Part shown: piece after piece, positions 4,475 to 20,389 of the stretch
Position numbering within the stretch: position 1 is the stretch's first letter
Layout: each line of letters starts with the position of its first letter
NCBI RefSeq assembly: GCF_001457615.1
Contig: NZ_LN831024.1
Coordinates: forward strand, 4,260,001 to 4,292,000
Source of the DNA: Pseudomonas aeruginosa
Lineage (GTDB): Bacteria; Pseudomonadota; Gammaproteobacteria; Pseudomonadales; Pseudomonadaceae
Direction of reading: 5' to 3'
DNA length: 32,000 nucleotides
Made by a program: the position numbers and the translations under genes
The notes under the pieces: model-generated
What the model was told of the DNA's origin: nothing
Database searches by the model: none
Seen by the model: only the letters and a program-made list of their open reading frames with translations

Positions 4475-4858
4475 ATGCGCCAACCGGATATCGAGATCTA
4501 CCTGAAAGACGCCGAGCACGCGGCCGTCGCCGCCTGGCTGGAACAGGCGCTGGGACCCTGCGGCCCATGGCAGGAGCACGGCCAGACCCTCAAGTGCACC
4601 GCCCGCGGCGAGCACGGCGCGGTGCGCGTCACCTGGCTGCCGAAGGCGGTGGGCAAGTGGCACAGCCTGTTCTTGGAGAGCGACAGCACGCCCTGGGACG
4701 ACGACCTCGCCTGCGCCAGGGCCGCGCATGCCGCGCTCGGCGTGGAGATCCGCTGCGCGCCGGGCGGCTGGGAGGAAAACCAGGGCGAAGAGGACGCCGA
4801 CCGCTGGCTGCGGGTCGACGCCGGGGGCGTCGAGGAAATTACCTGGCGCACCGCCTGA
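4475..4858 (+). CDS. Hypothetical protein (127 aa)
   Basis: Start chosen at the ATG at 4475, which has a GAGGA RBS 5 nt upstream (4466-4470). Host-like GC3-rich codons. No recognisable motif. Confidence 0.6.
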   Translation: MRQPDIEIYLKDAEHAAVAAWLEQALGPCGPWQEHGQTLKCTARGEHGAVRVTWLPKAVGKWHSLFLESDSTPWDDDLACARAAHAALGVEIRCAPGGWEENQGEEDADRWLRVDAGGVEEITWRTA

Positions 4859-8636: not shown

Positions 8637-11528
8637 ATGCATACCGACACCACACGCGAGAACCCGCAGGCCAGCGCGCCGCAGGCCGCCGATTCGTCGC
8701 AGGATCTGGCCGCCACCGCGCCGGGCCAGCTGCGCGTGATCAAGCGCAACGGCACCGTAGTCCCCTACACCGATGACAAGATCACCGTGGCCATCACCAA
8801 GGCGTTCCTCGCCGTGGAAGGCGGCACCGCCGCCGCCTCGTCGCGTATCCATGACACCGTGCGCCGCCTGACCGAGCAGGTCACCGCCACCTTCAAGCGC
8901 CGCATGCCGTCCGGCGGCACCATCCACATCGAAGAGATCCAGGACCAGGTCGAACTGGCCCTGATGCGCGCCGGCGAGCAGAAGGTCGCCCGCGACTACG
9001 TGATCTACCGCGAAGCCCGCGCCGCCGAGCGCAAGAACGCCGGCGCCGCCAGCGATGTCGCCCAGCCGCACCCGAGCATCCGCATCACCCGCGCCGACGG
9101 CAGCCTGTCGCCGCTGGACATGGGCCGCCTGAACACCATCATCAGCGAAGCCTGCGAAGGCCTGGCCGAGGTGGACGGCGCGCTGATCGAGCGCGAGACC
9201 CTGAAGAACCTCTACGATGGCGTCGCCGAGAAGGACGTCAACACCGCCCTGGTGATGACCGCGCGCACCCTGGTCGAGCGCGAGCCGAACTACTCCTACG
9301 TCACCGCCCGCCTGCTGATGGACACCCTGCGCGCCGAAGCCCTGGGCTTCCTCGGCGTGGCCGAGAGCGCCACCCATCACGAGATGGCCGAGCTGTACGC
9401 CAAGGCCCTGCCGGCCTACATCGAGAAAGGCGCCGAGTTCGAGCTGGTCGATGCCAAGCTGAAGGAATTCGACCTGGAGAAACTGGGCAAGGCCATCGAT
9501 CACGAGCGCGACCAGCAGTTCACCTACCTCGGCCTGCAGACCCTGTACGACCGCTACTTCATCCACAAGGACGGCATCCGCTTCGAACTGCCGCAGATCT
9601 TCTTCATGCGCGTGGCCATGGGCCTGGCCATCGAGGAGAAGGACCGCGAGGCACGTGCCATCGAGTTCTACAACCTGCTGTCGTCCTTCGACTACATGAG
9701 TTCCACCCCCACCCTGTTCAACGCCGGCACCCTGCGTCCGCAGCTCTCCAGCTGCTACCTGACCACCGTGCCGGACGACCTGTCGGGCATCTACGGCGCC
9801 ATCCACGACAACGCCATGCTGTCGAAATTCGCCGGCGGCCTGGGCAACGACTGGACCCCGGTGCGCGCGCTGGGCTCCTACATCAAGGGCACCAACGGCA
9901 AGTCCCAGGGCGTCGTGCCCTTCCTGAAAGTGGTCAATGACACCGCGGTCGCGGTCAACCAGGGCGGCAAGCGCAAGGGCGCGGTCTGCGCCTACCTGGA
10001 GACCTGGCACCTGGACATCGAGGAATTCCTCGAGCTGCGCAAGAACACCGGTGACGACCGTCGTCGTACCCACGACATGAACACCGCCAACTGGATCCCC
10101 GACCTGTTCATGAAGCGCGTCTTCGACGACGGCTCCTGGACCCTCTTCTCGCCGTCCGACGTCCCCGACCTGCACGACCTCTACGGCAAGGCCTTCGAGG
10201 AGCGCTACGAGTACTACGAGGCCCTGGCCAGCTACGGCAAGCTGAAGCTGCACAAGGTCGTCCAGGCCAAGGACCTGTGGCGCAAGATGCTCTCCATGCT
10301 GTTCGAAACCGGCCACCCGTGGCTGACCTTCAAGGACCCGTGCAACCTGCGCAGCCCGCAGCAGCACGTGGGCGTGGTGCACAGCTCGAACCTCTGCACC
10401 GAGATCACCCTGAACACCAACAAGGACGAGATCGCCGTCTGCAACCTGGGCTCGATCAACCTGGTCAACCACATCGTCGACGGCAAGCTGGACACCGCCA
10501 AGCTGGAGAAGACCGTCAAGACCGCGGTACGCATGCTCGATAACGTCATCGACATCAACTACTACTCGGTCCCGCAGGCGCAGAACTCCAACTTCAAGCA
10601 CCGTCCGGTCGGCCTGGGCATCATGGGCTTCCAGGACGCCCTGTACCTGCAGCACATCCCCTACGGTTCGGACGCGGCCATCGCCTTCGCCGACCAGTCC
10701 ATGGAAGCCATCAGCTACTACGCGATCCAGGCTTCCTGCGACCTGGCCGACGAGCGCGGCGCCTACCAGACCTTCCAGGGCTCGCTGTGGTCGCAAGGCA
10801 TCCTGCCGATCGACTCGGAGAAGAAGCTGATCGAAGAGCGCGGCGCCAAGTACATCGAAGTCGACCTGTCGGAAACCCTCGACTGGGCGCCGCTGCGCGA
10901 GCGCGTACAGAAAGGCATCCGCAACTCGAACATCATGGCCATCGCGCCGACCGCGACCATCGCCAACATCACCGGCGTCTCGCAGTCGATCGAGCCGACC
11001 TACCAGAACCTGTACGTGAAGTCGAACCTCTCCGGCGAATTCACCGTGATCAACCCCTACCTGGTGCGCGACCTCAAGGCCCGCGGCCTGTGGGACCCGG
11101 TCATGGTCAACGACCTGAAGTACTACGACGGTTCCGTGCAGCAGATCGAGCGCATCCCGCAGGACCTCAAGGACCTCTACGCCACCGCGTTCGAAGTCGA
11201 GACCCGCTGGATCGTCGAAGCCGCCAGCCGTCGCCAGAAGTGGATCGACCAGGCCCAGTCGCTGAACCTGTACATCGCCGGCGCCTCGGGCAAGAAGCTC
11301 GACGTGACCTACCGCATGGCCTGGTTCCGCGGCCTGAAGACCACCTACTACCTCCGTGCCCTGGCTGCCACCAGCACCGAGAAGTCCACCATCAACACCG
11401 GCAAGCTCAACGCCGTGTCGGCCGGTGGCAACGACGGCCTGCAAGCCGCCCCGGCCGCCGAGCCGAAGCCGGCGCCGGTGCCGCAGGCATGCAGCATCGA
11501 CAACCCCGACTGCGAAGCCTGCCAGTGA
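8637..11528 (+). CDS. nrdA: Class Ia ribonucleotide reductase, alpha subunit
   Basis: The ATG at 8637 (GGAGAT RBS) gives 963 aa. N-terminal ATP-cone (VIKRNGTVVPY...). Catalytic loop SSNLCTEI. C-terminal Cys pair (DCEACQ). The track start at 8580 adds 19 unlikely residues. Confidence 0.95.
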   Translation: MHTDTTRENPQASAPQAADSSQDLAATAPGQLRVIKRNGTVVPYTDDKITVAITKAFLAVEGGTAAASSRIHDTVRRLTEQVTATFKRRMPSGGTIHIEEIQDQVELALMRAGEQKVARDYVIYREARAAERKNAGAASDVAQPHPSIRITRADGSLSPLDMGRLNTIISEACEGLAEVDGALIERETLKNLYDGVAEKDVNTALVMTARTLVEREPNYSYVTARLLMDTLRAEALGFLGVAESATHHEMAELYAKALPAYIEKGAEFELVDAKLKEFDLEKLGKAIDHERDQQFTYLGLQTLYDRYFIHKDGIRFELPQIFFMRVAMGLAIEEKDREARAIEFYNLLSSFDYMSSTPTLFNAGTLRPQLSSCYLTTVPDDLSGIYGAIHDNAMLSKFAGGLGNDWTPVRALGSYIKGTNGKSQGVVPFLKVVNDTAVAVNQGGKRKGAVCAYLETWHLDIEEFLELRKNTGDDRRRTHDMNTANWIPDLFMKRVFDDGSWTLFSPSDVPDLHDLYGKAFEERYEYYEALASYGKLKLHKVVQAKDLWRKMLSMLFETGHPWLTFKDPCNLRSPQQHVGVVHSSNLCTEITLNTNKDEIAVCNLGSINLVNHIVDGKLDTAKLEKTVKTAVRMLDNVIDINYYSVPQAQNSNFKHRPVGLGIMGFQDALYLQHIPYGSDAAIAFADQSMEAISYYAIQASCDLADERGAYQTFQGSLWSQGILPIDSEKKLIEERGAKYIEVDLSETLDWAPLRERVQKGIRNSNIMAIAPTATIANITGVSQSIEPTYQNLYVKSNLSGEFTVINPYLVRDLKARGLWDPVMVNDLKYYDGSVQQIERIPQDLKDLYATAFEVETRWIVEAASRRQKWIDQAQSLNLYIAGASGKKLDVTYRMAWFRGLKTTYYLRALAATSTEKSTINTGKLNAVSAGGNDGLQAAPAAEPKPAPVPQACSIDNPDCEACQ

Positions 11529-13112: not shown

Positions 13113-13140
13113 AGCCCCGCCTTGTGCGGGGCTTTCCTTT
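13113..13140 (+). terminator. nrdB rho-independent terminator
   Basis: AGCCCCGC-CTTGT-GCGGGGCT followed by TTCCTTT. This is the last GC-rich sequence before the AT-rich insertion. Confidence 0.8.
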
Positions 13141-13226
13141 GTCAAGAAAAAATGTTCCGATAAGCTATGCTAGGTTGACGATATAACGAAACCACTGATC
13201 TAGAGCCAGTCAGTAAGGGATTAAAT

Positions 13227-14945
13227 ATGGCAAACAAGACTGACAATCTTCCAGACTTCCTTCAGGACTACGCATCTCTTTTTAGTCATTTCCAAGGCCA
13301 GATGGATGGTTTAACAACCGTTCAAATTGGAGATAAATTTGCCTCTTTAGCAGAACATTTGATTCCTCATACCGAGGCAGGCTCAGACTTTGAAAGAGCA
13401 ACAAAGTCAAAAAAGAGCTGGGACAAAGGTGTAGACCTAATATTTCAACACAAAGAAATTAACGGCGTAGAGCTAAGAGTACAGTCAAAATACACCATTT
13501 CGTCAGTAGATGATGTAGACTTAATTATAAGCAAATTCCAAGAGTACGACTCAAAAGATGCAACCAACAAACAACACGAACTAGACCTACTAGGATCATT
13601 AGAAGAAGATAGTCGACAGACAAGCAAATACCTGATAATAACCTCCTCGAAAATATCAAACATAATAGCAAAGTTCTTAGAGAGCCAACGTCCATCAAGA
13701 TTTTTCCTTGAGAGAATAAAAAAAGAAAAACGCTTTCATTATATCGATGGAATAGAAATACTAACCACTATACAGAGCATATATAGAAGTACATACATTC
13801 GCCCCCAAGAAACAAAACTAATATTCCAAACGCCTCACATCAGGGTTAACAATGTATACATTGGAGTACTACCTTGCAACGAACTTCGACGCGTATACGA
13901 AGAAGCTGGTGACTCTATATTCTTTGAAAACATTCGTGAATGGTTAGGATTCCAAGGAAAAAAAGTAAAATCCGGCGGGGTTCGTGAAACAGTCAATGAA
14001 GCAATAGCATCAACACTCGAAGACTCGCCAGAGAAAATGCTCGAAAGAAATAACGGCATAGTAATCAGAGCATCACAAGTGGAGGAAACCTCAAACTCAT
14101 CCTTGAAACTAAGAGATGCTAGTATTGTAAACGGCTGCCAGACTACTATGAGTGTATTTTTCGTCAATCCTGCCGATGGACATGTGCTAGCAAAAATTGT
14201 AGAGACAGAAGATTCATGGGAGATAGCTAAGGCGGCCAATTTCCAGACAGAAATAGAACGAATAGAACTTGAACTAGCCAGATATCTAAGACCACAACTT
14301 GCCAGATCTGTTGGAGCAGAGAATAATTTTAAATTCGACCAAAAAGAAGTAACAAAAGGCAAATCAGCCTTTGCTCTACTCGACCAAATATATAAAGATG
14401 AAATTTGCTATGATGAACTAAAATCGATATTTATCGGACTATTTTCACGCTCTGCAAACAATGCGATATCGCCAAACTATACCGAGCTTAGAATTGATGT
14501 ACTTCAAAACTTCGAAAGAGACTCTGAAAAATCTAAATTCCTAGAGGCTCTTTTCGTGCTCCACAGCAAATCATCTACGGCGATGGAGTCTTTGAAAGAT
14601 GGTTTGTTAAAACCTGAAATTATGGATCTATTTAAAAGATTTTGGAAAGAAGACAAACCATCATATAGGGCATTTGTCACACTCTTAGCCATATTCAGCG
14701 CCCTTGACAAAAAAAATCGCAGGTTTGAAGACTACAACGACATAAAGAGCGGAATAATAAAACTAGCAGGACAAATAGAAATCGACCCCGGCGAATACAT
14801 AGAAACATATATAAAAGCCTTTAAAACTATAGCGCTAGACGTCCTCAAAGGCAGCGAGGACAAGGATAAAATGCTGCAAAGCATGTATCATCACATTGGC
14901 TCAATGAATTTTGAAAATGCTTTACTATCCATGTCACTATTGTAA
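13227..14945 (+). CDS. AIPR-family (abortive infection phage resistance-like) protein with an N-terminal PD-(D/E)xK / Mrr-like nuclease motif, 572 aa
   Basis: Single long ORF in an AT-rich block, with an AAGGGA RBS. Residues 234-306 read ENIREWLG..VNEAIASTL..NNGIVI..IVNGCQT, which I recognise as the AIPR (PF10592) core. Residues 66-88 read DKGVDLIF...ELRVQSKY, which fits D-x(n)-QxK nuclease geometry. I recognise no motif in the C-terminal ~250 aa. Confidence 0.75.
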   Translation: MANKTDNLPDFLQDYASLFSHFQGQMDGLTTVQIGDKFASLAEHLIPHTEAGSDFERATKSKKSWDKGVDLIFQHKEINGVELRVQSKYTISSVDDVDLIISKFQEYDSKDATNKQHELDLLGSLEEDSRQTSKYLIITSSKISNIIAKFLESQRPSRFFLERIKKEKRFHYIDGIEILTTIQSIYRSTYIRPQETKLIFQTPHIRVNNVYIGVLPCNELRRVYEEAGDSIFFENIREWLGFQGKKVKSGGVRETVNEAIASTLEDSPEKMLERNNGIVIRASQVEETSNSSLKLRDASIVNGCQTTMSVFFVNPADGHVLAKIVETEDSWEIAKAANFQTEIERIELELARYLRPQLARSVGAENNFKFDQKEVTKGKSAFALLDQIYKDEICYDELKSIFIGLFSRSANNAISPNYTELRIDVLQNFERDSEKSKFLEALFVLHSKSSTAMESLKDGLLKPEIMDLFKRFWKEDKPSYRAFVTLLAIFSALDKKNRRFEDYNDIKSGIIKLAGQIEIDPGEYIETYIKAFKTIALDVLKGSEDKDKMLQSMYHHIGSMNFENALLSMSLL

Positions 14946-15014
14946 ATAACTCCCTAAGGAGCTATTCCTCAAATTTTTATTTTCTGACACTCCCTTTTCG
15001 CCTCCCGGCGAGTC

Positions 15015-15089
15015 ACTTTTGCCAGTCGCGGCAAAAGTAACCAAAAACGCTTGCCCCTGCATCCGGCCCCAGTCGCTTCGCGACTGGGG
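15015..15089. repeat. Pair of perfect 9-bp-stem hairpins within a GC-rich non-coding block
   Basis: ACTTTTGCC-AGTCGC-GGCAAAAGT (15015-15038) and CCCCAGTCG-CTTCG-CGACTGGGG (15067-15089). Both contain AGTCGC. Weaker hairpins lie at 15128-15144 and 15155-15169. The block resembles interspersed Pseudomonas repeat DNA that is often mis-annotated as small ORFs; this is recollection, not checked. Confidence 0.5.
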
Positions 15090-15711
15090 TTCCCTCCCTC
15101 CATCGCCGTTCCGGGGGCACGCCGCCACGGTCCTTCGTGGACCGAGGCGGCTTTCGCGGCATCCTGCCGCTCAACCCCCTACACGACGATTCCGCTCGGC
15201 CTCCTGATGGGGCGGACCGGAGCGTCGGATATTTCTCTGGAAGAGGTAGGGCAAATCACGCACAGCGTGATTCGCAAGATGGGGCAGAGTTGCCAAGCGC
15301 CGGGCGGCGCAGGTTTGGTAAAAAGCCTTGTTTCATGTGGTTTCTTTGATAGAGAGAGTCTTTCAGCTTCGCTCATTCCGCTCGGTTGTTTCGTTCCTCT
15401 CGTCTCAATACTCTGCCACCGGCGCCTAAGAAACGCTAAACCACGCAGCGGCCAGACCGCTCCCGACAGCCAAGCGGCTTTTTTGAGTCTGCGGTATTCT
15501 CTCGCCCTCAAAATCTCTGCAACGCCGGGAGTGGACGAATACAAGACCCGAAAGGGAAATATGTCCGGCCCTCTGCGTGGGGTTTTCTTAACTCCCGGCA
15601 CCCCAGCCCAAGAAAGCTGGTCACATCACGCAGAGGTAACGGAAATGCCTATCACCAATCCCATATCTCCATCCACACCGCTTCATCCCACTACCTCCCC
15701 GGAGGTGCGCC

Positions 15712-16265
15712 ATGTCTGACGCCCCCCTCCACTACAGCCGTTTCACCCACCACCATCGGGTCCTGCGCGCCGTGCTGCTGGATGAGGAAGGCTGGTTCGT
15801 GCTCTCCGACCTGGCACGGCTGCTGGGCCGTTACCTGGGCGGTCGGGCGCCGGCGGCGTTGTGTGACGAGGCGCCGTGGCCGCTGGCGACGGCGGAACAG
15901 CGCGAGCGCTTGTTCGCCCTCTGCCATGCGCTGGAGCGGCATCTGGACACCGATCAGTGGCGGCTCGCCTGGCTCCATGACGAACGCCACGGGCCACGCC
16001 AGGACTGCCTGGTCAGCGAGTCCGGGCTCTACGCTCTGCTCTGGCTCGCAGCGCCTGGCGCGGCACGGGGTTTGCGCGTTGGGTCAGCGGCTCGGTGCTG
16101 CCACGCCTGCGCAGCCAGTCCCGCCCCAACGCCACGCCCCAGCGCGCCGTGCTGCACTGGAAAACCGCCGAGATCGACACCCTGCACTGGCAAGGCAAGA
16201 CCTGGATCCCCCTCTCCGACTGCCCCCAACTCCTCGACAGTCCACGCCCGCTGATCCGGGCCTGA
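15712..16265 (+). pseudogene. Bro-N domain (prophage antirepressor-like) gene with a 1-nt frameshift
   Basis: Frame 1 reads MSDAPLHYSRFTHHHRVLRAVLLDEEGWFVLSDLARLLG...LVSESGLYALLW. The Bro-N consensus continues in frame 3 (FARWVSGSVLPRLRS...LIRA*, stop at 16263-16265). The frame switch falls in the GGGGTTT tract at 16067-16073, and the LY-to-F spacing (13 residues) fits Bro-N. Confidence 0.65.
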
Positions 16266-16470: not shown

Positions 16471-16704
16471 TTAGGCGTAAACCCCAATAAAATACTCCAA
16501 TCCAACCGGAAGCTTTTCGCCTATAACCTCCTCAATCCTTACAACATCATCATTCTTAATAGGATATTCACCCTCAATATTCTCACCCTTCTTCCAACGC
16601 ATCACCTCCATAACTTGCGAAATATATTCGAAAGGAACAGTTTTTTCATATTTCAAGGACTCATCATTTCCCTATGGTAGGTACCCAGAAATCAATACAG
16701 TCAT
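16471..16704 (-). pseudogene. Putative immunity gene of the E3-like rRNase cassette, with an in-frame TAG at codon 11; a 61-aa TTG-initiated ORF (16471..16656) remains open
   Basis: The ATG at 16704 overlaps the toxin-remnant TGA in an ATGA arrangement, the classical position of a bacteriocin immunity gene. The reading frame gives MTVLISGYLP*GNDES(L)KYEKTVPFEY... I see no similarity to ImmE3, so the assignment rests on position only. Confidence 0.4.
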
Positions 16705-16965
16705 GTTTCTACACTCCTTTTTGGATCAGCAGACTTCGTGCGAGCACCAGTATTAGAATCAAACCCTCCCAAGTGCCACCCTCTCTTGTCATACATCTCA
16801 AAACTGCCATGCTGAGAATCCCATTTATAGATATTCCCTTTTATCCTTCCAATGCTTCCGCAACCCACCACCACCTTGAATAGAAGTTTTTGGCTTAGCT
16901 CTCAAGGCGTCGGGGAAGGCAGGTAGTGTTGCCGGAGCAGGATAGTAATACACAAGGCTTTCAAT
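16701..16965 (-). pseudogene. Colicin E3 / pyocin S6-type 16S rRNase cytotoxic domain remnant (no N-terminal domains, one internal frameshift)
   Basis: The minus-strand translation reads IESLVYYYPAPATLPAFPDALRAKPKTSIQGGGGLRKHWKDKR, then a frameshift near 16836-16845, then NIYKWDSQHGSFEMYDKRGWHLGGFDSNTGARTKSADPKRSVET*. It aligns by eye with the recalled colicin E3 C-terminus DYHPAPKTENIKGLGDLKPGIPKTPKQNGGGKRKRWTGDKGRKIYEWDSQHGELEGYRASDGQHLGSFDPKTGNQLKGPDPKRNIKKYL. An in-frame TGA lies immediately upstream at 16966-16968. Confidence 0.8.
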
Positions 16966-17051
16966 TCAAAATCGCAGACTCACGCATTTTGCGACTGACG
17001 CACTAACTGACAATTCGGCGATTTACATCTGCTCTCGAAGCATGGATTGGC

Positions 17052-17088
17052 TAAGAAACAGGCGAAGCCCATAAACTGACTTCGCCTG
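17052..17088 (-). terminator. Rho-independent terminator downstream of the ImmD-like gene
   Basis: 9-bp stem CAGGCGAAG / CTTCGCCTG (17059-17088) followed on the minus strand by TTTCTT (17053-17058), about 30 nt after the 17120 stop. Confidence 0.7.
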
Positions 17089-17119
17089 ATCTATATCTTC
17101 GGATATAAAGGATCATCAG

Positions 17120-17392
17120 CTAGATATATTTATATTTCTTCAAAAGCCCTCTAACTTCCTGCTTTAGCTCCTCTTCATTTATCTCACCATCATTATCCTT
17201 CGGTCCATCCGTGAAGCAATCTGCCATTCCAAACATAAGCCTGAGGCAAGCGCCAAGATTATCATCATCCTTTTTCAGCAAGCCTGACGCACCTTCGCTA
17301 CGCCACATTTCAAAGAATTTTTTTGTGAAACTCTTTCCGCTTAACGATCCATCCAAAAAATTTCTTGCAAGATCAATAAGTGCCATGCTCAT
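17120..17392 (-). CDS. Colicin D immunity (ImmD)-like protein, orphan immunity gene, 90 aa
   Basis: MSMALIDLARNFLDGSLSGKSFTKKF...EINEEELKQEVRGLLKKYKYI parallels the recalled ImmD sequence ([24 protein letters not shown]...[21 protein letters not shown]) in length and at both termini. The ORF is intact, its ATG lies 6 nt after the upstream toxin-remnant stop, and it has its own terminator. Confidence 0.8.
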   Translation of the reverse strand: MSMALIDLARNFLDGSLSGKSFTKKFFEMWRSEGASGLLKKDDDNLGACLRLMFGMADCFTDGPKDNDGEINEEELKQEVRGLLKKYKYI

Positions 17393-17398
17393 TTAAAT

Positions 17399-17620
17399 CA
17401 TCTCATTCTCAAAATAGTTTTTTCCTGTCTGCTTCCTGGCTCAAGATACCACCCTGACAAAAACATTCCATCCTCTTTGAGAACAACCACAATACTAGTA
17501 TCAGGACTGTAAAATAATTGGATCCTTGATACCTATGACAAACCCCTTGCAAATTATGTCGTGCTTTATCGAAGCGCTCCTGCCTTATCTGCATGACTTC
17601 TTCATAAATGTACGATTTGG
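17399..17620 (-). pseudogene. Colicin D-type tRNase domain C-terminal remnant (multiple frameshifts)
   Basis: The last 33 codons read SPDTSIVVVLKEDGMFLSGWYLEPGSRQEKTILRMR* (stop 17399-17401), against the recalled colicin D end NPNTMNVVIIKSNGEFLSGWKINPDADNGRIYLETGEL. Upstream homology continues in two other frames: CKGFVIGIKDPIILQ matches EKGTYRREKGSKVYFN spacing, and ERFDKARHNL matches KFRDAIEEHL. The upstream limit is approximate. Confidence 0.6.
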
Positions 17621-17909
17621 CGTTGTCGCCTTCAGCTTCCCGCTGGACTCCCTTGACCTTACGAGTCATCCGCTCGTAATCTTCCGGCCACAACGCTTGC
17701 TCCATGCGCAACGATGCCTGACCCAGCAAATGCAGCAGGCCGAACAGGCGCATATCGTTGGTGGCAACGATGTGTTCTCGAATCCACTCGTGGGTTACTC
17801 CGCAGGCCAGATGTGTTTCTGGCGTTGATGTGCTGTCATAGTCGGCTCGGAATCCCGCTTCTTTGGCGAGCTGTGCCCAGTGCTGGCCAATGCCTGGTGT
17901 TGGATGTAC

Positions 17910-18169
17910 TCATTTGCTCATCCACTTGCGCAGCAGGCGCTTTTTCAGGGACGCGCGTTCTTGCGGGTTGTGTCCCTTGAGGTTAGCGACACGATCTGCC
18001 GTAGCAGCCTGGCGTATGAGGGGCCAGTAGGAACGCCCATCCTTACGTGGCACCAGTGTTATTGACCTGACTTTCCAGTAGGGAGAGGTGGGCTGCTGGC
18101 CAACGTGGAGAGCTCGCTACGGCAGCTCGTGCGCCCGACGATGGGTGTTTTGCGGTGGTTGCGGCTCAT
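17910..18169 (-). pseudogene. Frameshifted small conserved hypothetical gene (~86 codons)
   Basis: The ATG at 18169 gives MSRNHRKTPIVGRTSCRSE... and stops after 36 codons. The reading continues in another frame ([48 protein letters not shown], stop 17910-17912). The span of 260 nt is not a multiple of 3. I recall this as a widespread small hypothetical family but cannot name it. Confidence 0.4.
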
Positions 18170-18230
18170 AATGTGATTGTCTTCAAGAATATTCAGGACA
18201 GACTGTCAAGATAGAGCAGCGTCAACATGG

Positions 18231-18258
18231 AACAAGCCCCGTCGAAACGGGGCTTGTT
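18231..18258 (-). terminator. Hairpin terminating the pyocin-immunity operon
   Basis: AACAAGCCCCG-TCGAAA-CGGGGCTTGTT, a perfect 11-bp stem 10 nt downstream of the immunity stop. It has no clean U-tract. Confidence 0.6.
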
Positions 18259-18267
18259 GATGGCCAA

Positions 18268-18531
18268 CTAACCGGCCTTAAAGCCAGGAAGCCCCTTGGA
18301 AGCACGCCATTCTTTAACTTCCTTTACAACTCCAGCTGGGCTATCTTCTCTATTTTCGTTGGGGTAGTAAAGAAGGTCTGAGCCGCTTGGGTGTTCCGTT
18401 AGTTTTTTAAATTCAAGCACGGCTTGAATATGAGACTCCTCGGTAGGGAACTTTTTCTTATTGTTTGTGTATATGTCTTTAACAAACTCAAGAAACTCTT
18501 TTTCCGTATATTCGGAAATCTTGGACTTCAT
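18268..18531 (-). CDS. imm1: S1/S2-type pyocin DNase immunity protein (colicin E-DNase Im family, 87 aa)
   Basis: MKSKISEYTEKEFLEFVKDIYTNN...LLYYPNENREDSPAGVVKEVKEWRASKGLPGFKAG is the recalled 87-aa pyocin S1/S2 immunity sequence. Its ATG follows the pyocin TGA by 1 nt. Confidence 0.92.
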   Translation of the reverse strand: MKSKISEYTEKEFLEFVKDIYTNNKKKFPTEESHIQAVLEFKKLTEHPSGSDLLYYPNENREDSPAGVVKEVKEWRASKGLPGFKAG

Positions 18532-18532
18532 A

Positions 18533-20389
18533 TCACTTCCCTCCCGTGTGGATTTCTATATGACGTTTTGGCGTTACTGCAACAAGGTTCCCCATATTGT
18601 AAACGCCGCCTCCATCTGCTATTCGAACCTTGTGGTGGATTTCGATCTTTATTCTCCCGCCAGCCTGTTCTGACTCTCTGACATAAGGAGCACCTCCATC
18701 TCTCATTACAGCTAAACTACCAGGATTAAACTGTTTACTTAACTCAGGATCATTAGCCACAGCTATCCAGAATTGTTCCCGAAAGTCCCGCCAGTTTTTG
18801 AATGTCTTACCACGTAGTTTATCCGCAATCTGGCTTGGAATTGGAGCCCCCTCACCTTGAGAGGCGGCGCCGAGCCAATTACCGCTGACGGGCTGTCCCT
18901 TGCCAGTCGCAGCACCAGGTACATCCCGCGGATCCCTGAACATCACATAGATCGGCTTGATCCCCGAGTCGGCCGGGAAGCCGATGATCAGATCATCCGG
19001 TAGCGTCATCACTCCTGGATAGGTTTCTGGTTTGGCCTTCACCGGTGTGAGGGTCGCCCCCTCATATACCGGCACCGGCTTCGGTACGACCGGAGTGGTA
19101 CTCGAAGGGTTCTGGTTTCCGGGAGGACTCGCCGGCGTCCAGGTCAGGATAAGCGGCGGTGCTTCTGCGACCGTAGAGGGAACCGTAACCTCGTACAGTC
19201 CTGTCGCGGTGTTATAGGCCGCCATCCGGACTGGAACGGCTTTCGGAACGCTCACACCATCGGTGCTGACCACCGAAAGGGTCGTCGTGCTGCCCCGTGC
19301 CTCGTTGGTCAGTCGCATCGGCAGATCGACGGTACCACCTGCTTTTGCAACCGCGTTCAGATTTACGCTTGAGGGAAGCCCCAGCTTGTTGGCATCCATG
19401 CCCAGGGCGTAACGAACGCTATCGGGCGTTTGGTCCTGCCATTGCTCGGCAGTCCGGGAGGAGTAGGTCAGACTGGCAAAGCCCACGGCCATCACCGAGG
19501 GTGCTGAAGCCAGGACCCGGCCCAGGACGGCAATCGCATCGGAGATCGCTTGAGCAAGGGATGCGGCGCCTTGTGCGACCTGGATCAGACCCCGGCCTGC
19601 GGCGGTGGCGACAACGCTGCCATTGGCCGGCATGGCATAGGTATTGGCAGCTCTTATCGCCGCTTGCTGGCGGGCCTGCTCTTCGGCTTTGCGTTTGGCC
19701 TCAGCCGCTGCTTGTTCACGCGCCTTGTTTGCTGCGGCCGCCTCAATACTTGCTTTGGCGGCGGTCAACGTATTCATGCGGATCTGGAGACTACTGATCG
19801 CTTCGGTGAAGAGTTTTACGTTATAAGCTGCCGTGAGACCTTCCATTTCCCTGTCGAGGAAGCGCATATAGGCTTCAGGCCCGTTAATATTGCCTTCTCG
19901 CACCGCTTGTTCACCGATCTCTTCCGCCGTACGGGTAAGGAAATTCTTTGCACCCAGGCTGGTAATCTTCTTCTGATTCAGCAGTAGTTTTTGATTCTTT
20001 TGCTGGAGGGCGTTTCCAACGATGGTCAGACTGCGGTTGATGACGTCCAATGGTGCAAGATTCTTTGCCGGACCAAGAGCGGCATCAGCCTTATCCAGCT
20101 CGGCTTGTACCGACGCCTCAAGTTTTTTCTCGGCATCTCGGAACTGAAGCTCGATCTCCCTGCGTTTTTCTTTAACCTGAAGAGGAACATAGCGTCTGGG
20201 GTCAACGCCCAGATCAGCATAACTTTCAAACTCTTGCCAGCCATTTTCAGTGGACGAATCCAAGCCGTGCTCTATAGGTCTGGCAATGGGGCCAATGCCG
20301 GTACCTCCCCCAGGGCCGTAATAAACGTCTCCGCTTGCCGTGACAGTTGTAGAGTTGAAGTGGATAAGGTCAGCAATGGGTCGTGCCAT
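18533..20389 (-). CDS. pys1: S-type pyocin, S1-type large component with a C-terminal HNH DNase domain (618 aa)
   Basis: AGGAGA RBS. The C-terminal ~370 aa (from AAIRAANTYAMPANGSVV... to HHKVRIADGGGVYNMGNLVAVTPKRHIEIH) match the recalled pyocin S2 translocation and HNH domains. The N-terminal ~245 aa (MARPIADLIHFNSTTVTASGDVYYGPGGG...) differ from S2 (MAVNDYEPG...). The 618-aa length equals the published S1 size. Confidence 0.88.
   Translation of the reverse strand: MARPIADLIHFNSTTVTASGDVYYGPGGGTGIGPIARPIEHGLDSSTENGWQEFESYADLGVDPRRYVPLQVKEKRREIELQFRDAEKKLEASVQAELDKADAALGPAKNLAPLDVINRSLTIVGNALQQKNQKLLLNQKKITSLGAKNFLTRTAEEIGEQAVREGNINGPEAYMRFLDREMEGLTAAYNVKLFTEAISSLQIRMNTLTAAKASIEAAAANKAREQAAAEAKRKAEEQARQQAAIRAANTYAMPANGSVVATAAGRGLIQVAQGAASLAQAISDAIAVLGRVLASAPSVMAVGFASLTYSSRTAEQWQDQTPDSVRYALGMDANKLGLPSSVNLNAVAKAGGTVDLPMRLTNEARGSTTTLSVVSTDGVSVPKAVPVRMAAYNTATGLYEVTVPSTVAEAPPLILTWTPASPPGNQNPSSTTPVVPKPVPVYEGATLTPVKAKPETYPGVMTLPDDLIIGFPADSGIKPIYVMFRDPRDVPGAATGKGQPVSGNWLGAASQGEGAPIPSQIADKLRGKTFKNWRDFREQFWIAVANDPELSKQFNPGSLAVMRDGGAPYVRESEQAGGRIKIEIHHKVRIADGGGVYNMGNLVAVTPKRHIEIHTGGK

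Follow-up and report, generated by a model that had tools for sequence, protein, structure and literature searches.

An AT-rich cassette downstream of nrdB in Pseudomonas aeruginosa carries the gene of a probable AbiU-like AIPR-family protein

The variable cassette downstream of nrdB

The 32,000-nt stretch of Pseudomonas aeruginosa DNA analyzed here (NZ_LN831024.1, 4,260,001-4,292,000; hereafter the window, to which all positions refer unless another locus is named) carries a short AT-rich cassette directly downstream of the ribonucleotide reductase genes nrdA and nrdB. Its only gene, named in public databases as an ISPa4 transposase, encodes a 572-amino-acid (aa) protein of the AIPR family, which we regard as a probable AbiU-like anti-phage protein. 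As delimited by window composition and by allele comparison, the variable cassette spans 13141-14995 (+ strand; 1,855 bp, 38% G+C). The G+C content is 0.60-0.70 in nrdA and nrdB, falls to 0.32-0.42 across approximately 13200-14950 and is again 0.67 by 15000-15199. The cassette contains a single intact open reading frame (ORF), 13227..14945 (+), of 572 aa, which uses the earliest start codon available, 6 nt behind a Shine-Dalgarno-like AAGGGA (13215-13220) in the 5' leader of the cassette (13141..13226, +; from sequence and promoter scan). At the composition of this ORF, 572 stop-free codons would be expected by chance at a rate of only ~3e-18. Its G+C content by codon position is 0.47/0.33/0.34, as compared to 0.59/0.37/0.93 in nrdB, with the third-position value being 0.93 in both nrdA and nrdB. 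A first reading made from the letters alone (the sequence-only reading) had proposed an AT-rich block at 13141-14990 between GC-rich flanks, with one long ORF that has a ribosome-binding site and AT-rich codons; both proposals are borne out, and the breakpoints determined here lie within 5 bp of those suggested.

The left border of the variable site is formed by the intrinsic terminator of nrdB (13114..13140, +), found by a terminator scan and consisting of a GCCCCGC/GCGGGGC stem, a CTTGT loop and a T-run, which is kept in all three alleles described below. In each of the 24 contigs in which we read the context of the identical protein, the gene order was nrdA, nrdB, the AIPR gene, a 184-aa Bro-N-like ORF, a variable S-pyocin locus, a DUF2195 gene and toxA, with the AIPR gene present as a single copy at this nrdB-to-toxA site. 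A look-up of the exact NrdB protein revealed the alternative alleles. In the first one (L010 9361-10299; also L015), whose breakpoints relative to the window are 13140|13141 and 14995|14996, the same place is taken by an 81-aa ORF and a 312-aa PF06189 protein annotated as a 5'-nucleotidase; the latter is a near-full-length match to the PADLOC phage-defence candidate PDC-S08 (E 1e-142). In the other, the RAYT allele, which is the common one, a 177-aa Y1 transposase named REP-associated tyrosine transposase (RAYT) lies between inverted REP doublets, GTAGGGCGAATAACG / GCTGGCGGATAACG, located at 9526-9559, 10146-10182, 10333-10348 and 10454-10487 of L008 (allele 9526-10487). Here the left homology stops at 13131, and the segment differing from the window is 13132-15688 (2,557 bp). 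This segment includes a GC-rich spacer to the right of the cassette (14996..15688, +), which is found in the PDC-S08 allele and is mostly missing from the RAYT allele; the spacer contains hairpins, degenerate REP remnants and a match to the sRNA-Xcc1 family, and lies outside the AIPR cassette proper. A degenerate remnant of the REP array of the RAYT allele is recognizable in the window at ~15175-15276.

Since the breakpoints are allele-specific (13141-14995 and 13132-15688), the site swaps single-gene cassettes between conserved flanks. The sequence-only reading had foreseen that a comparison of the flanks would disclose an empty site and other cargo; other cargo was indeed found, and the alleles turned out to replace one another, with no insertion into an empty site. 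The AIPR, PDC-S08 and RAYT clusters of the protein collection are represented on ~1,350, ~1,100 and at least 1,260 contigs, respectively, and no match to the AIPR gene was detected in the GTDB representative genome of P. aeruginosa. Hence the gene is not species-wide, other P. aeruginosa strains carrying RAYT or PDC-S08 cargo instead, in agreement with the earlier proposal that it is accessory and horizontally acquired. Given that a PDC-S08 candidate occupies the same breakpoints, our results suggest a small defence replacement island at the nrdB site. Two papers on P. aeruginosa hotspots and defence (PMC10250203, PMC12035536) mention neither the nrdB site nor AbiU or AIPR, so that the site does not figure among the core defence hotspots published for this species. 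Some P. aeruginosa strains carry truncated AIPR genes (302, 374, 420, 520 or 535 aa), and the occurrence of the 302-aa form on 44 contigs suggests recurrent inactivation in some lineages.

Domain organisation of the 572-aa protein

The protein encoded by 13227..14945 (+), which is 100% identical to the cluster representative P0001, comprises an N-terminal nuclease domain (residues 1-195; 13227..13811, +), an AIPR core (residues 196-400; 13812..14426, +) and a C-terminal helical region (residues 401-572; 14427..14942, +). Residue conservation was assessed in an alignment of 105 homologues, Pfam was rescanned over 80 homologues, and an AlphaFold2 model of the whole protein was obtained with a pLDDT of 87.6 and a pTM of 0.82. 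The motifs quoted in the sequence-only reading were found at their positions (DKGVD 66-70, QSK 86-88, ENIREWLG 234-241, NNG 275-277, VNGCQT 301-306), except that the glutamine numbered 304 is Q305, residue 304 being Cys.

The predicted catalytic signature of the N-terminal domain, D66-x-G68-x-D70...Q86-S-K88 (13422..13490, +), hardly varies in the alignment: D66, G68, D70 and Q86 are unchanged in 105/105 homologues, and K88 is kept in 100 of them, with Arg in the remaining five. The Pfam family Mrr_cat_2 scored below threshold in the window protein itself (14.4 bits against a gathering cut-off of 22; E 0.037); it was recovered at E<=0.01 in 19 of the 80 homologues (best 1e-6), and Mrr_cat in nine. 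The best Foldseek match in PDB was MspJI (4f0p, probability 1.00), followed by HamA, EcoT38I, SfsA, AF1548, EndoMS and Cap4, all of them PD-(D/E)xK nucleases, and a Foldseek search of BFVD showed that predicted structures of phage proteins annotated as restriction endonucleases also match the N-terminal domain with a probability of 1.00. The near-invariant residues, the Pfam matches of the relatives and the MspJI fold uphold the Mrr-like D...QxK site that had been proposed at residues 66-88. Conservation and predicted structure thus show residues 1-195 to be an Mrr/MspJI-type PD-(D/E)xK nuclease domain with an intact D-G-D...QxK site, and this domain would act as the effector. In its D...QxK variant of the PD-(D/E)xK site, the window protein agrees with Mrr and MspJI; these enzymes, however, couple the nuclease to winged-helix or SRA-like modules that read DNA, whereas here it is coupled with an AIPR module, and its N-terminal position differs from the Mrr and MspJI layout. 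A HEPN domain was assigned to AIPR proteins in a 2012 analysis (Makarova et al.; PMC3506569). Neither Pfam nor Foldseek nor the homologue scans gave a match to a HEPN family in the 572-aa protein, and the HEPN-AIPR architecture can be ruled out here, the N-terminus being an Mrr-type nuclease.

The AIPR assignment, already made in the sequence-only reading, is secure: Pfam AIPR (PF10592) matches residues 232-500 with 102 bits, far above the gathering cut-off of 25 (E 6.7e-29), and was found in all 80 homologues scanned. The core motifs ENIR, RNNG and VNGCQT are present, and R237, N257, T263, N275, N276, G277, N302, G303, Q305, T306, K323, W331, N338 and Q340 are invariant in the 105 homologues. 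A sequence search against solved structures returned only glutaredoxin/thioredoxin noise (E 0.4-0.6). At the level of structure, ParB, Noc, KorB, PadC and sulfiredoxin (Srx) entries recur among the PDB matches of the full model, and with the isolated core (residues 196-400; pLDDT 87) approximately 30 of the top 34 PDB matches belonged to ParB/Noc/KorB/PadC/Srx, although they were weak (E 0.1-2). The evidence from predicted viral structures in BFVD was stronger; among these we found a phage protein annotated as AIPR (E 4.8e-9), proteins annotated as the N-terminal domain of the GmrSD restriction endonuclease (DUF262; probability 0.93-0.96 over ~415 columns) and DndB-type proteins annotated as DNA-sulfur modification-associated (probability 0.96). 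The GmrSD and DndB matches agree with a published link, in which DndB's N-terminal domain was placed with the AbiU1/AIPR family (PMC3506569). Together, the models suggest that the AIPR core resembles a ParB/sulfiredoxin-like fold and groups with ParB, DUF262 and DndB. Where DUF262 and DndB have the motif DGQ(Q/H)R, the window protein has V-N-G-C-Q-T, with both the Asp and the Arg gone, and we found no DGQ(Q/H)R or GERR-type nucleotide-binding motif in it.

The sequence-only reading had considered the last ~250 aa a separate domain without recognizable motifs. This view does not hold, as Pfam AIPR reaches residue 500, and the C-terminal region (401-572) contains conserved residues and is co-linear both in the 105 homologues and in a deep profile search. 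In the model the region is all-helical (pLDDT ~85-96); its conserved residues include S407, N412, Y418, F469, R471, Y480 and R481, and an FxRFWKExKPxYR motif is conserved at approximately residues 469-481. Lying inside both the Pfam AIPR model and the structural alignments to DUF262-like proteins, the C-terminus is part of the AIPR module.

Family relationships and genomic neighbours

The window protein matched the PADLOC model of AbiU with an E value of 4.3e-21, aligning residues 162-351 to positions 177-357 of the 537 in the model; this model was also matched by 71 of the 80 homologues. Further matches were obtained to PHROG 1841, whose annotation is abortive infection (E 2e-25), and to MzaE (PADLOC, E 2e-10; NCBIfam, E 1e-11). 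An identity as MzaE, a component of the five-gene MZA system, was rejected: its NCBIfam score, 43.9, falls far short of the 1050 required at the equivalog level, and instead of mzaABCD the neighbours are nrdB and the Bro-N-like ORF; the two proteins have the AIPR core in common and differ in their terminal domains. A search of 5.8 billion proteins yielded 199 homologues at E<=1e-5, most of them co-linear over ~570-600 aa with 33-45% identity, and when 1.84 billion cluster representatives were searched exhaustively with a profile, 221 matched at E<=1e-30, 2,092 at 1e-10 and 5,704 at 1e-3. Judged by these searches, the group of the window protein is a small, well-defined subfamily within a large family. 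Its members occur mostly in Acidobacteria, Chloroflexi and Cyanobacteria, in addition to a Pseudomonas/Chromobacterium clade, and in all 48 homologous genes examined the G+C content was below that of their own flanks. Plasmid and phage collections contained no close relatives, only distant AIPR-core matches; AIPR relatives carried by phages do exist.

Lactococcal AbiU has been described as a single-protein, nuclease-like defence system with a restriction-endonuclease-like N-terminus, and AbiUi alone confers modest protection on Lactococcus (plating efficiency 0.1-0.01) and delays phage transcription (PMC13064643). AbiU-1 has been grouped among the PD-(D/E)xK defence nucleases (PMC13099982), and AbiU has been validated in Vibrio and is countered by a validated phage anti-defence, Surt (bioRxiv 10.1101/2024.06.14.598830). 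AbiU is included in PADLOC and DefenseFinder and found in ~4% of RefSeq bacterial genomes, with its mechanism stated as unknown (bioRxiv 10.64898/2026.09.15.751803); hence the earlier remark that the AIPR family lacks an established mechanism still applies to AIPR/AbiU. Similarly to AbiU of L. lactis (AbiUi/AbiU1), the window protein is a single protein of ~570-590 aa that has an AIPR core and no required partner, but the N- and C-terminal parts of the two are too diverged for sequence alignment. We regard it as most probably a divergent AbiU-class member, the profile match being significant yet partial. The order nuclease, AIPR, C-terminal region, which had been singled out as an under-described architecture, is the catalogued AbiU layout.

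The ParB-fold proteins GmrSD, BrxU and SspE also combine a ParB-fold module with a nuclease in one polypeptide. Their domain order is opposite to that of the window protein, in which the nuclease comes first, and their nuclease is the His-Me/HNH-like DUF1524, not a PD-(D/E)xK domain; moreover, the DGQQR motif of GmrSD-type proteins is replaced by NGCQT, and no match was found at the sequence level. DndB, in turn, has no nuclease domain and acts within the dnd operon, and no dnd genes are present at the window locus.

We clustered all the ORFs located up to 3.5 kb from the gene in ~48 non-redundant loci. The only neighbour present in at least four of them was nrdB, which agrees with the earlier statement that no partner gene is present. 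Each of the seven lineages (7/7) of the proteobacterial clade, whose proteins are 52-78% identical to the window protein, has the gene on the nrdB strand and no more than 2 kb downstream of nrdB, and in four of these (P. aeruginosa, a P. aeruginosa relative, P. rhizoryzae and Chromobacterium) it directly follows the host's nrdB terminator. In the close relative of P. aeruginosa NrdB is 95% identical and the AIPR protein only 66%; NrdB of Chromobacterium is 64% identical. None of the ~40 distant full-length homologues has nrdB nearby, no promoter or leader is conserved upstream of the gene across species beyond each host's nrdB terminator, and we found no mobile-element signature that would explain the linkage. 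Possibly it arose by recombination using the conserved nrdB as an arm or by preferred insertion near terminators, or it may reflect a functional coupling to nrdAB read-through.

Same-strand genes of ~325-347 aa follow the AIPR gene in P. rhizoryzae, P. chlororaphis and an Acidobacterium. These ~330-aa genes were rejected as partners, as they are mutually non-homologous and have left no remnant in the window. A 327-aa Cys/His-rich protein (N-terminal CPNDAC...H..GCPY; L019 7760-8743, L023 6755-7744, L086 6754-7740) is encoded 37-47 nt downstream in P. chlororaphis, P. retamae and a metagenomic lineage, with 71-95% identity between the copies. It has no Pfam or PADLOC match and is missing from P. 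aeruginosa, and its gene has a G+C content of 0.55 as opposed to 0.39 for the AIPR gene; it may be an accessory gene in one sister subclade or represent mere shared gene order. As judged from gene content, the family is essentially a one-gene unit, and the protein acts alone, since no partner gene is conserved across the family.

To the right of the cassette, the window contains a cluster of GC-rich hairpins at 14996-15100 (TCGCC-TCCC-GGCGA, GTCACTTTTGCC/GGCAAAAGTAAC and CCCCAGTCGC-TTCG-GCGACTGGGG), which is also found in the PDC-S08 allele. Elsewhere in the window, GCCTCCCGGCGAG recurs with at most two mismatches, at 4756, 24532 and 27156. The Rfam family sRNA-Xcc1 matches 15524-15607 (+) with 72.5 bits (gathering threshold 53), ~105 nt upstream of the Bro-N-like ORF (15712..16254, +), and it also matches L010 10931-11020. 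The element is present in the AIPR and PDC-S08 alleles and not in the RAYT allele; it was not found in the related Pseudomonas and Chromobacterium loci and, since it is missing there, it lies outside the AIPR cassette. The ORF6N domain is related to KilA-N/Bro-N. In APSE phages an RNA of the sRNA-Xcc1 family is located upstream of an ORF6N-domain gene (PMC7313666), and given this same placement, sRNA-Xcc1 may by analogy be the 5' leader of Bro-N/ORF6N-type genes rather than a free-standing small RNA. The Bro-N-like ORF is 180 aa long in the window as compared to 184 aa in L001-L007 and most strains, with an apparent 1-bp indel that moves its position and end; as its C-terminal half reads as a low-complexity Pro/Ala/Arg-rich sequence, the window copy may be frameshifted. 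Further right lies the S-pyocin locus (16471-20389, -), which accounts for the adjacent bacteriocin locus of the sequence-only reading. It encodes a 618-aa DNase-type pyocin (Pyocin_S + Col-Pyo_DNase; 18533-20389) with its immunity gene (18268-18531); other small AT-rich ORFs are present too, as is an orphan Colicin_immun gene (17120-17392). From strain to strain the toxin domain found here differs widely (colicin D, DNase, CdiI-associated), and insertion sequences (IS) interrupt some of the loci.

Proposed function and the ISPa4 label

Taken together, the sequence, the model and the analogy to AbiU make it likely that a horizontally acquired one-gene cassette, placed in the nrdB replacement site, encodes an AbiU-like anti-phage protein. 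In such a protein the AIPR module would be a sensor or switch that binds DNA and perhaps nucleotide, like the ParB-fold domains of GmrSD, BrxU and SspE, and keeps the nuclease in check until infection provides a cue; the released nuclease would then cut DNA, so that phage gene expression and replication are blocked. The structural matches to the GmrSD N-terminal domain make a nucleotide-gated, DNA-sensing nuclease a plausible working model. The proposed outcome resembles that of lactococcal AbiU, which delays phage transcription, and by analogy to AbiU we lean toward partial, phage-directed interference. Cutting may be confined to phage DNA, giving Type IV-like direct immunity, or may extend to host DNA, giving abortive infection.

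Several points weigh against this interpretation. The PADLOC match spans only 34% of the AbiU model, and the homology to the validated AbiU proteins accordingly rests on the AIPR core, while the nuclease N-terminus common to AbiU and the window protein is taken from published statements and not from an alignment. The ParB-fold matches in PDB are singly weak (E 0.1-2, probability <=0.51), and, as NGCQT replaces DGQ(Q/H)R, nucleotide binding by the AIPR module is not to be assumed. A promoter scan of the 13141-13226 leader revealed no convincing sigma-70 promoter. MvaT/MvaU silencers typically bind low-G+C DNA, and the very low G+C content of the gene may mean that they silence it. Finally, the nrdB linkage in 7/7 lineages could point to a role in nucleotide metabolism, instead of or beside defence.

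The linkage also bears on a variant of the defence hypothesis, which we find unlikely, namely that the nuclease is coupled to the ribonucleotide reductase operon, with a ParB-like, nucleotide-gated AIPR switch and a functional reason for its placement behind nrdB. A drop in deoxyribonucleotide (dNTP) levels or stalled replication during phage takeover would then raise read-through from nrdAB and make expression of the nuclease infection-responsive; alternatively, the protein would sense the nucleotide pool directly. It is distinctly unlikely that the protein is not chiefly a defence factor, being instead a DNA-binding or nuclease factor tied to nrdAB (in nucleotide-pool or replication-stress functions) or a DndB-like regulator. 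The position within 2 kb downstream of nrdB in 7/7 lineages, including Chromobacterium with its 64% identical NrdB, would fit such a role, as would the failure to detect an own promoter and the regulatory role of DndB (PMC3506569), to which the AIPR core is related; however, the gene is dispensable, with RAYT or PDC-S08 at the site in other strains, ~40 distant full-length homologues have no nrdB nearby, the strictly conserved, intact nuclease site fits an effector and not a regulator, and both the foreign composition and the defence candidate among the other cargo of the site argue in the same direction.

We consider it very unlikely that the gene is a silenced or inert foreign passenger, addiction-like or drifting, without current benefit to the host. 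Its 38% G+C in a 66% G+C genome is typical of MvaT/MvaU targets, the upstream scan gave no clear promoter, and the truncated versions of 302-535 aa in some strains would also be expected of such a passenger. Nevertheless, the ORF is intact and keeps all family-invariant residues, and full-length 572-aa variants are found on more than 1,300 contigs. Moreover, orthologues of only 66-78% identity, with every motif retained, still occupy this site in other Pseudomonas species, indicating long-term purifying selection.

The name under which the gene is known has to be considered as well, since NCBI/RefSeq and UniRef call the identical protein an 'ISNCY-like element ISPa4 family transposase', a label that the sequence-only reading had missed. 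As summarised in PMC9854967, ISPa4 was defined by Sokol in 1994 from the mucoid PAO derivative PAO-muc, where an element of 2,564 bp lay upstream of toxA. The difference between the window and the RAYT allele, 2,557 bp, is close to this length as reported there. We found neither terminal inverted repeats nor a target-site duplication at 13141/14995 or at 13132/15688, and Pfam, NCBIfam and PHROGs gave no match to a DDE, HUH, serine or tyrosine recombinase family. TnsA of Tn7 is a transposition protein with a restriction-endonuclease fold. That the block is the insertion sequence ISPa4 (ISNCY) and the 572-aa protein its transposase, as RefSeq, UniRef and ISfinder-derived annotation have it, is nonetheless extremely unlikely: the database name, the near-coincidence in length and the occurrence of such folds in some transposition proteins speak for it, but both breakpoint pairs lack repeats and duplication, the gene is found as one copy at one chromosomal site in 24/24 contigs, its domains are an Mrr nuclease and AIPR without a transposase domain, the 199 homologues (E<=1e-5) are AIPR-annotated single genes in unrelated contexts, and the site shows allele replacement rather than insertion into an empty site. 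With no repeats, no duplication, no transposase domain and one fixed location, the transposase label looks wrong. The simplest reading would be that 'ISPa4' is the sequence difference between two alleles, whose sole ORF inherited the transposase name. The gene labelled 'ISPa4 transposase' very probably encodes a defence nuclease of AbiU-like type, and what was described as an 'IS' in 1994 is probably a difference between alleles.

The AbiU/AIPR type as such is already catalogued, so that the identification made in the sequence-only reading was correct and its novelty overstated; what is new here is the divergent subfamily with its model, the corrected annotation, the nrdB replacement site and the linkage to nrdB. 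More than 1,300 P. aeruginosa contigs carry the gene under the 'ISPa4 transposase' label, and surveys count 'ISPa4' as an IS. The site behind nrdB holds a RAYT, a PDC-S08 or an AIPR gene, beside the variable S-pyocin locus and toxA. For the AbiU/AIPR family, the subfamily offers a confident model and a testable layout, i.e., an Mrr-type nuclease combined with a ParB/DUF262-like module, and P. aeruginosa, for which many phages exist, is tractable as a host.

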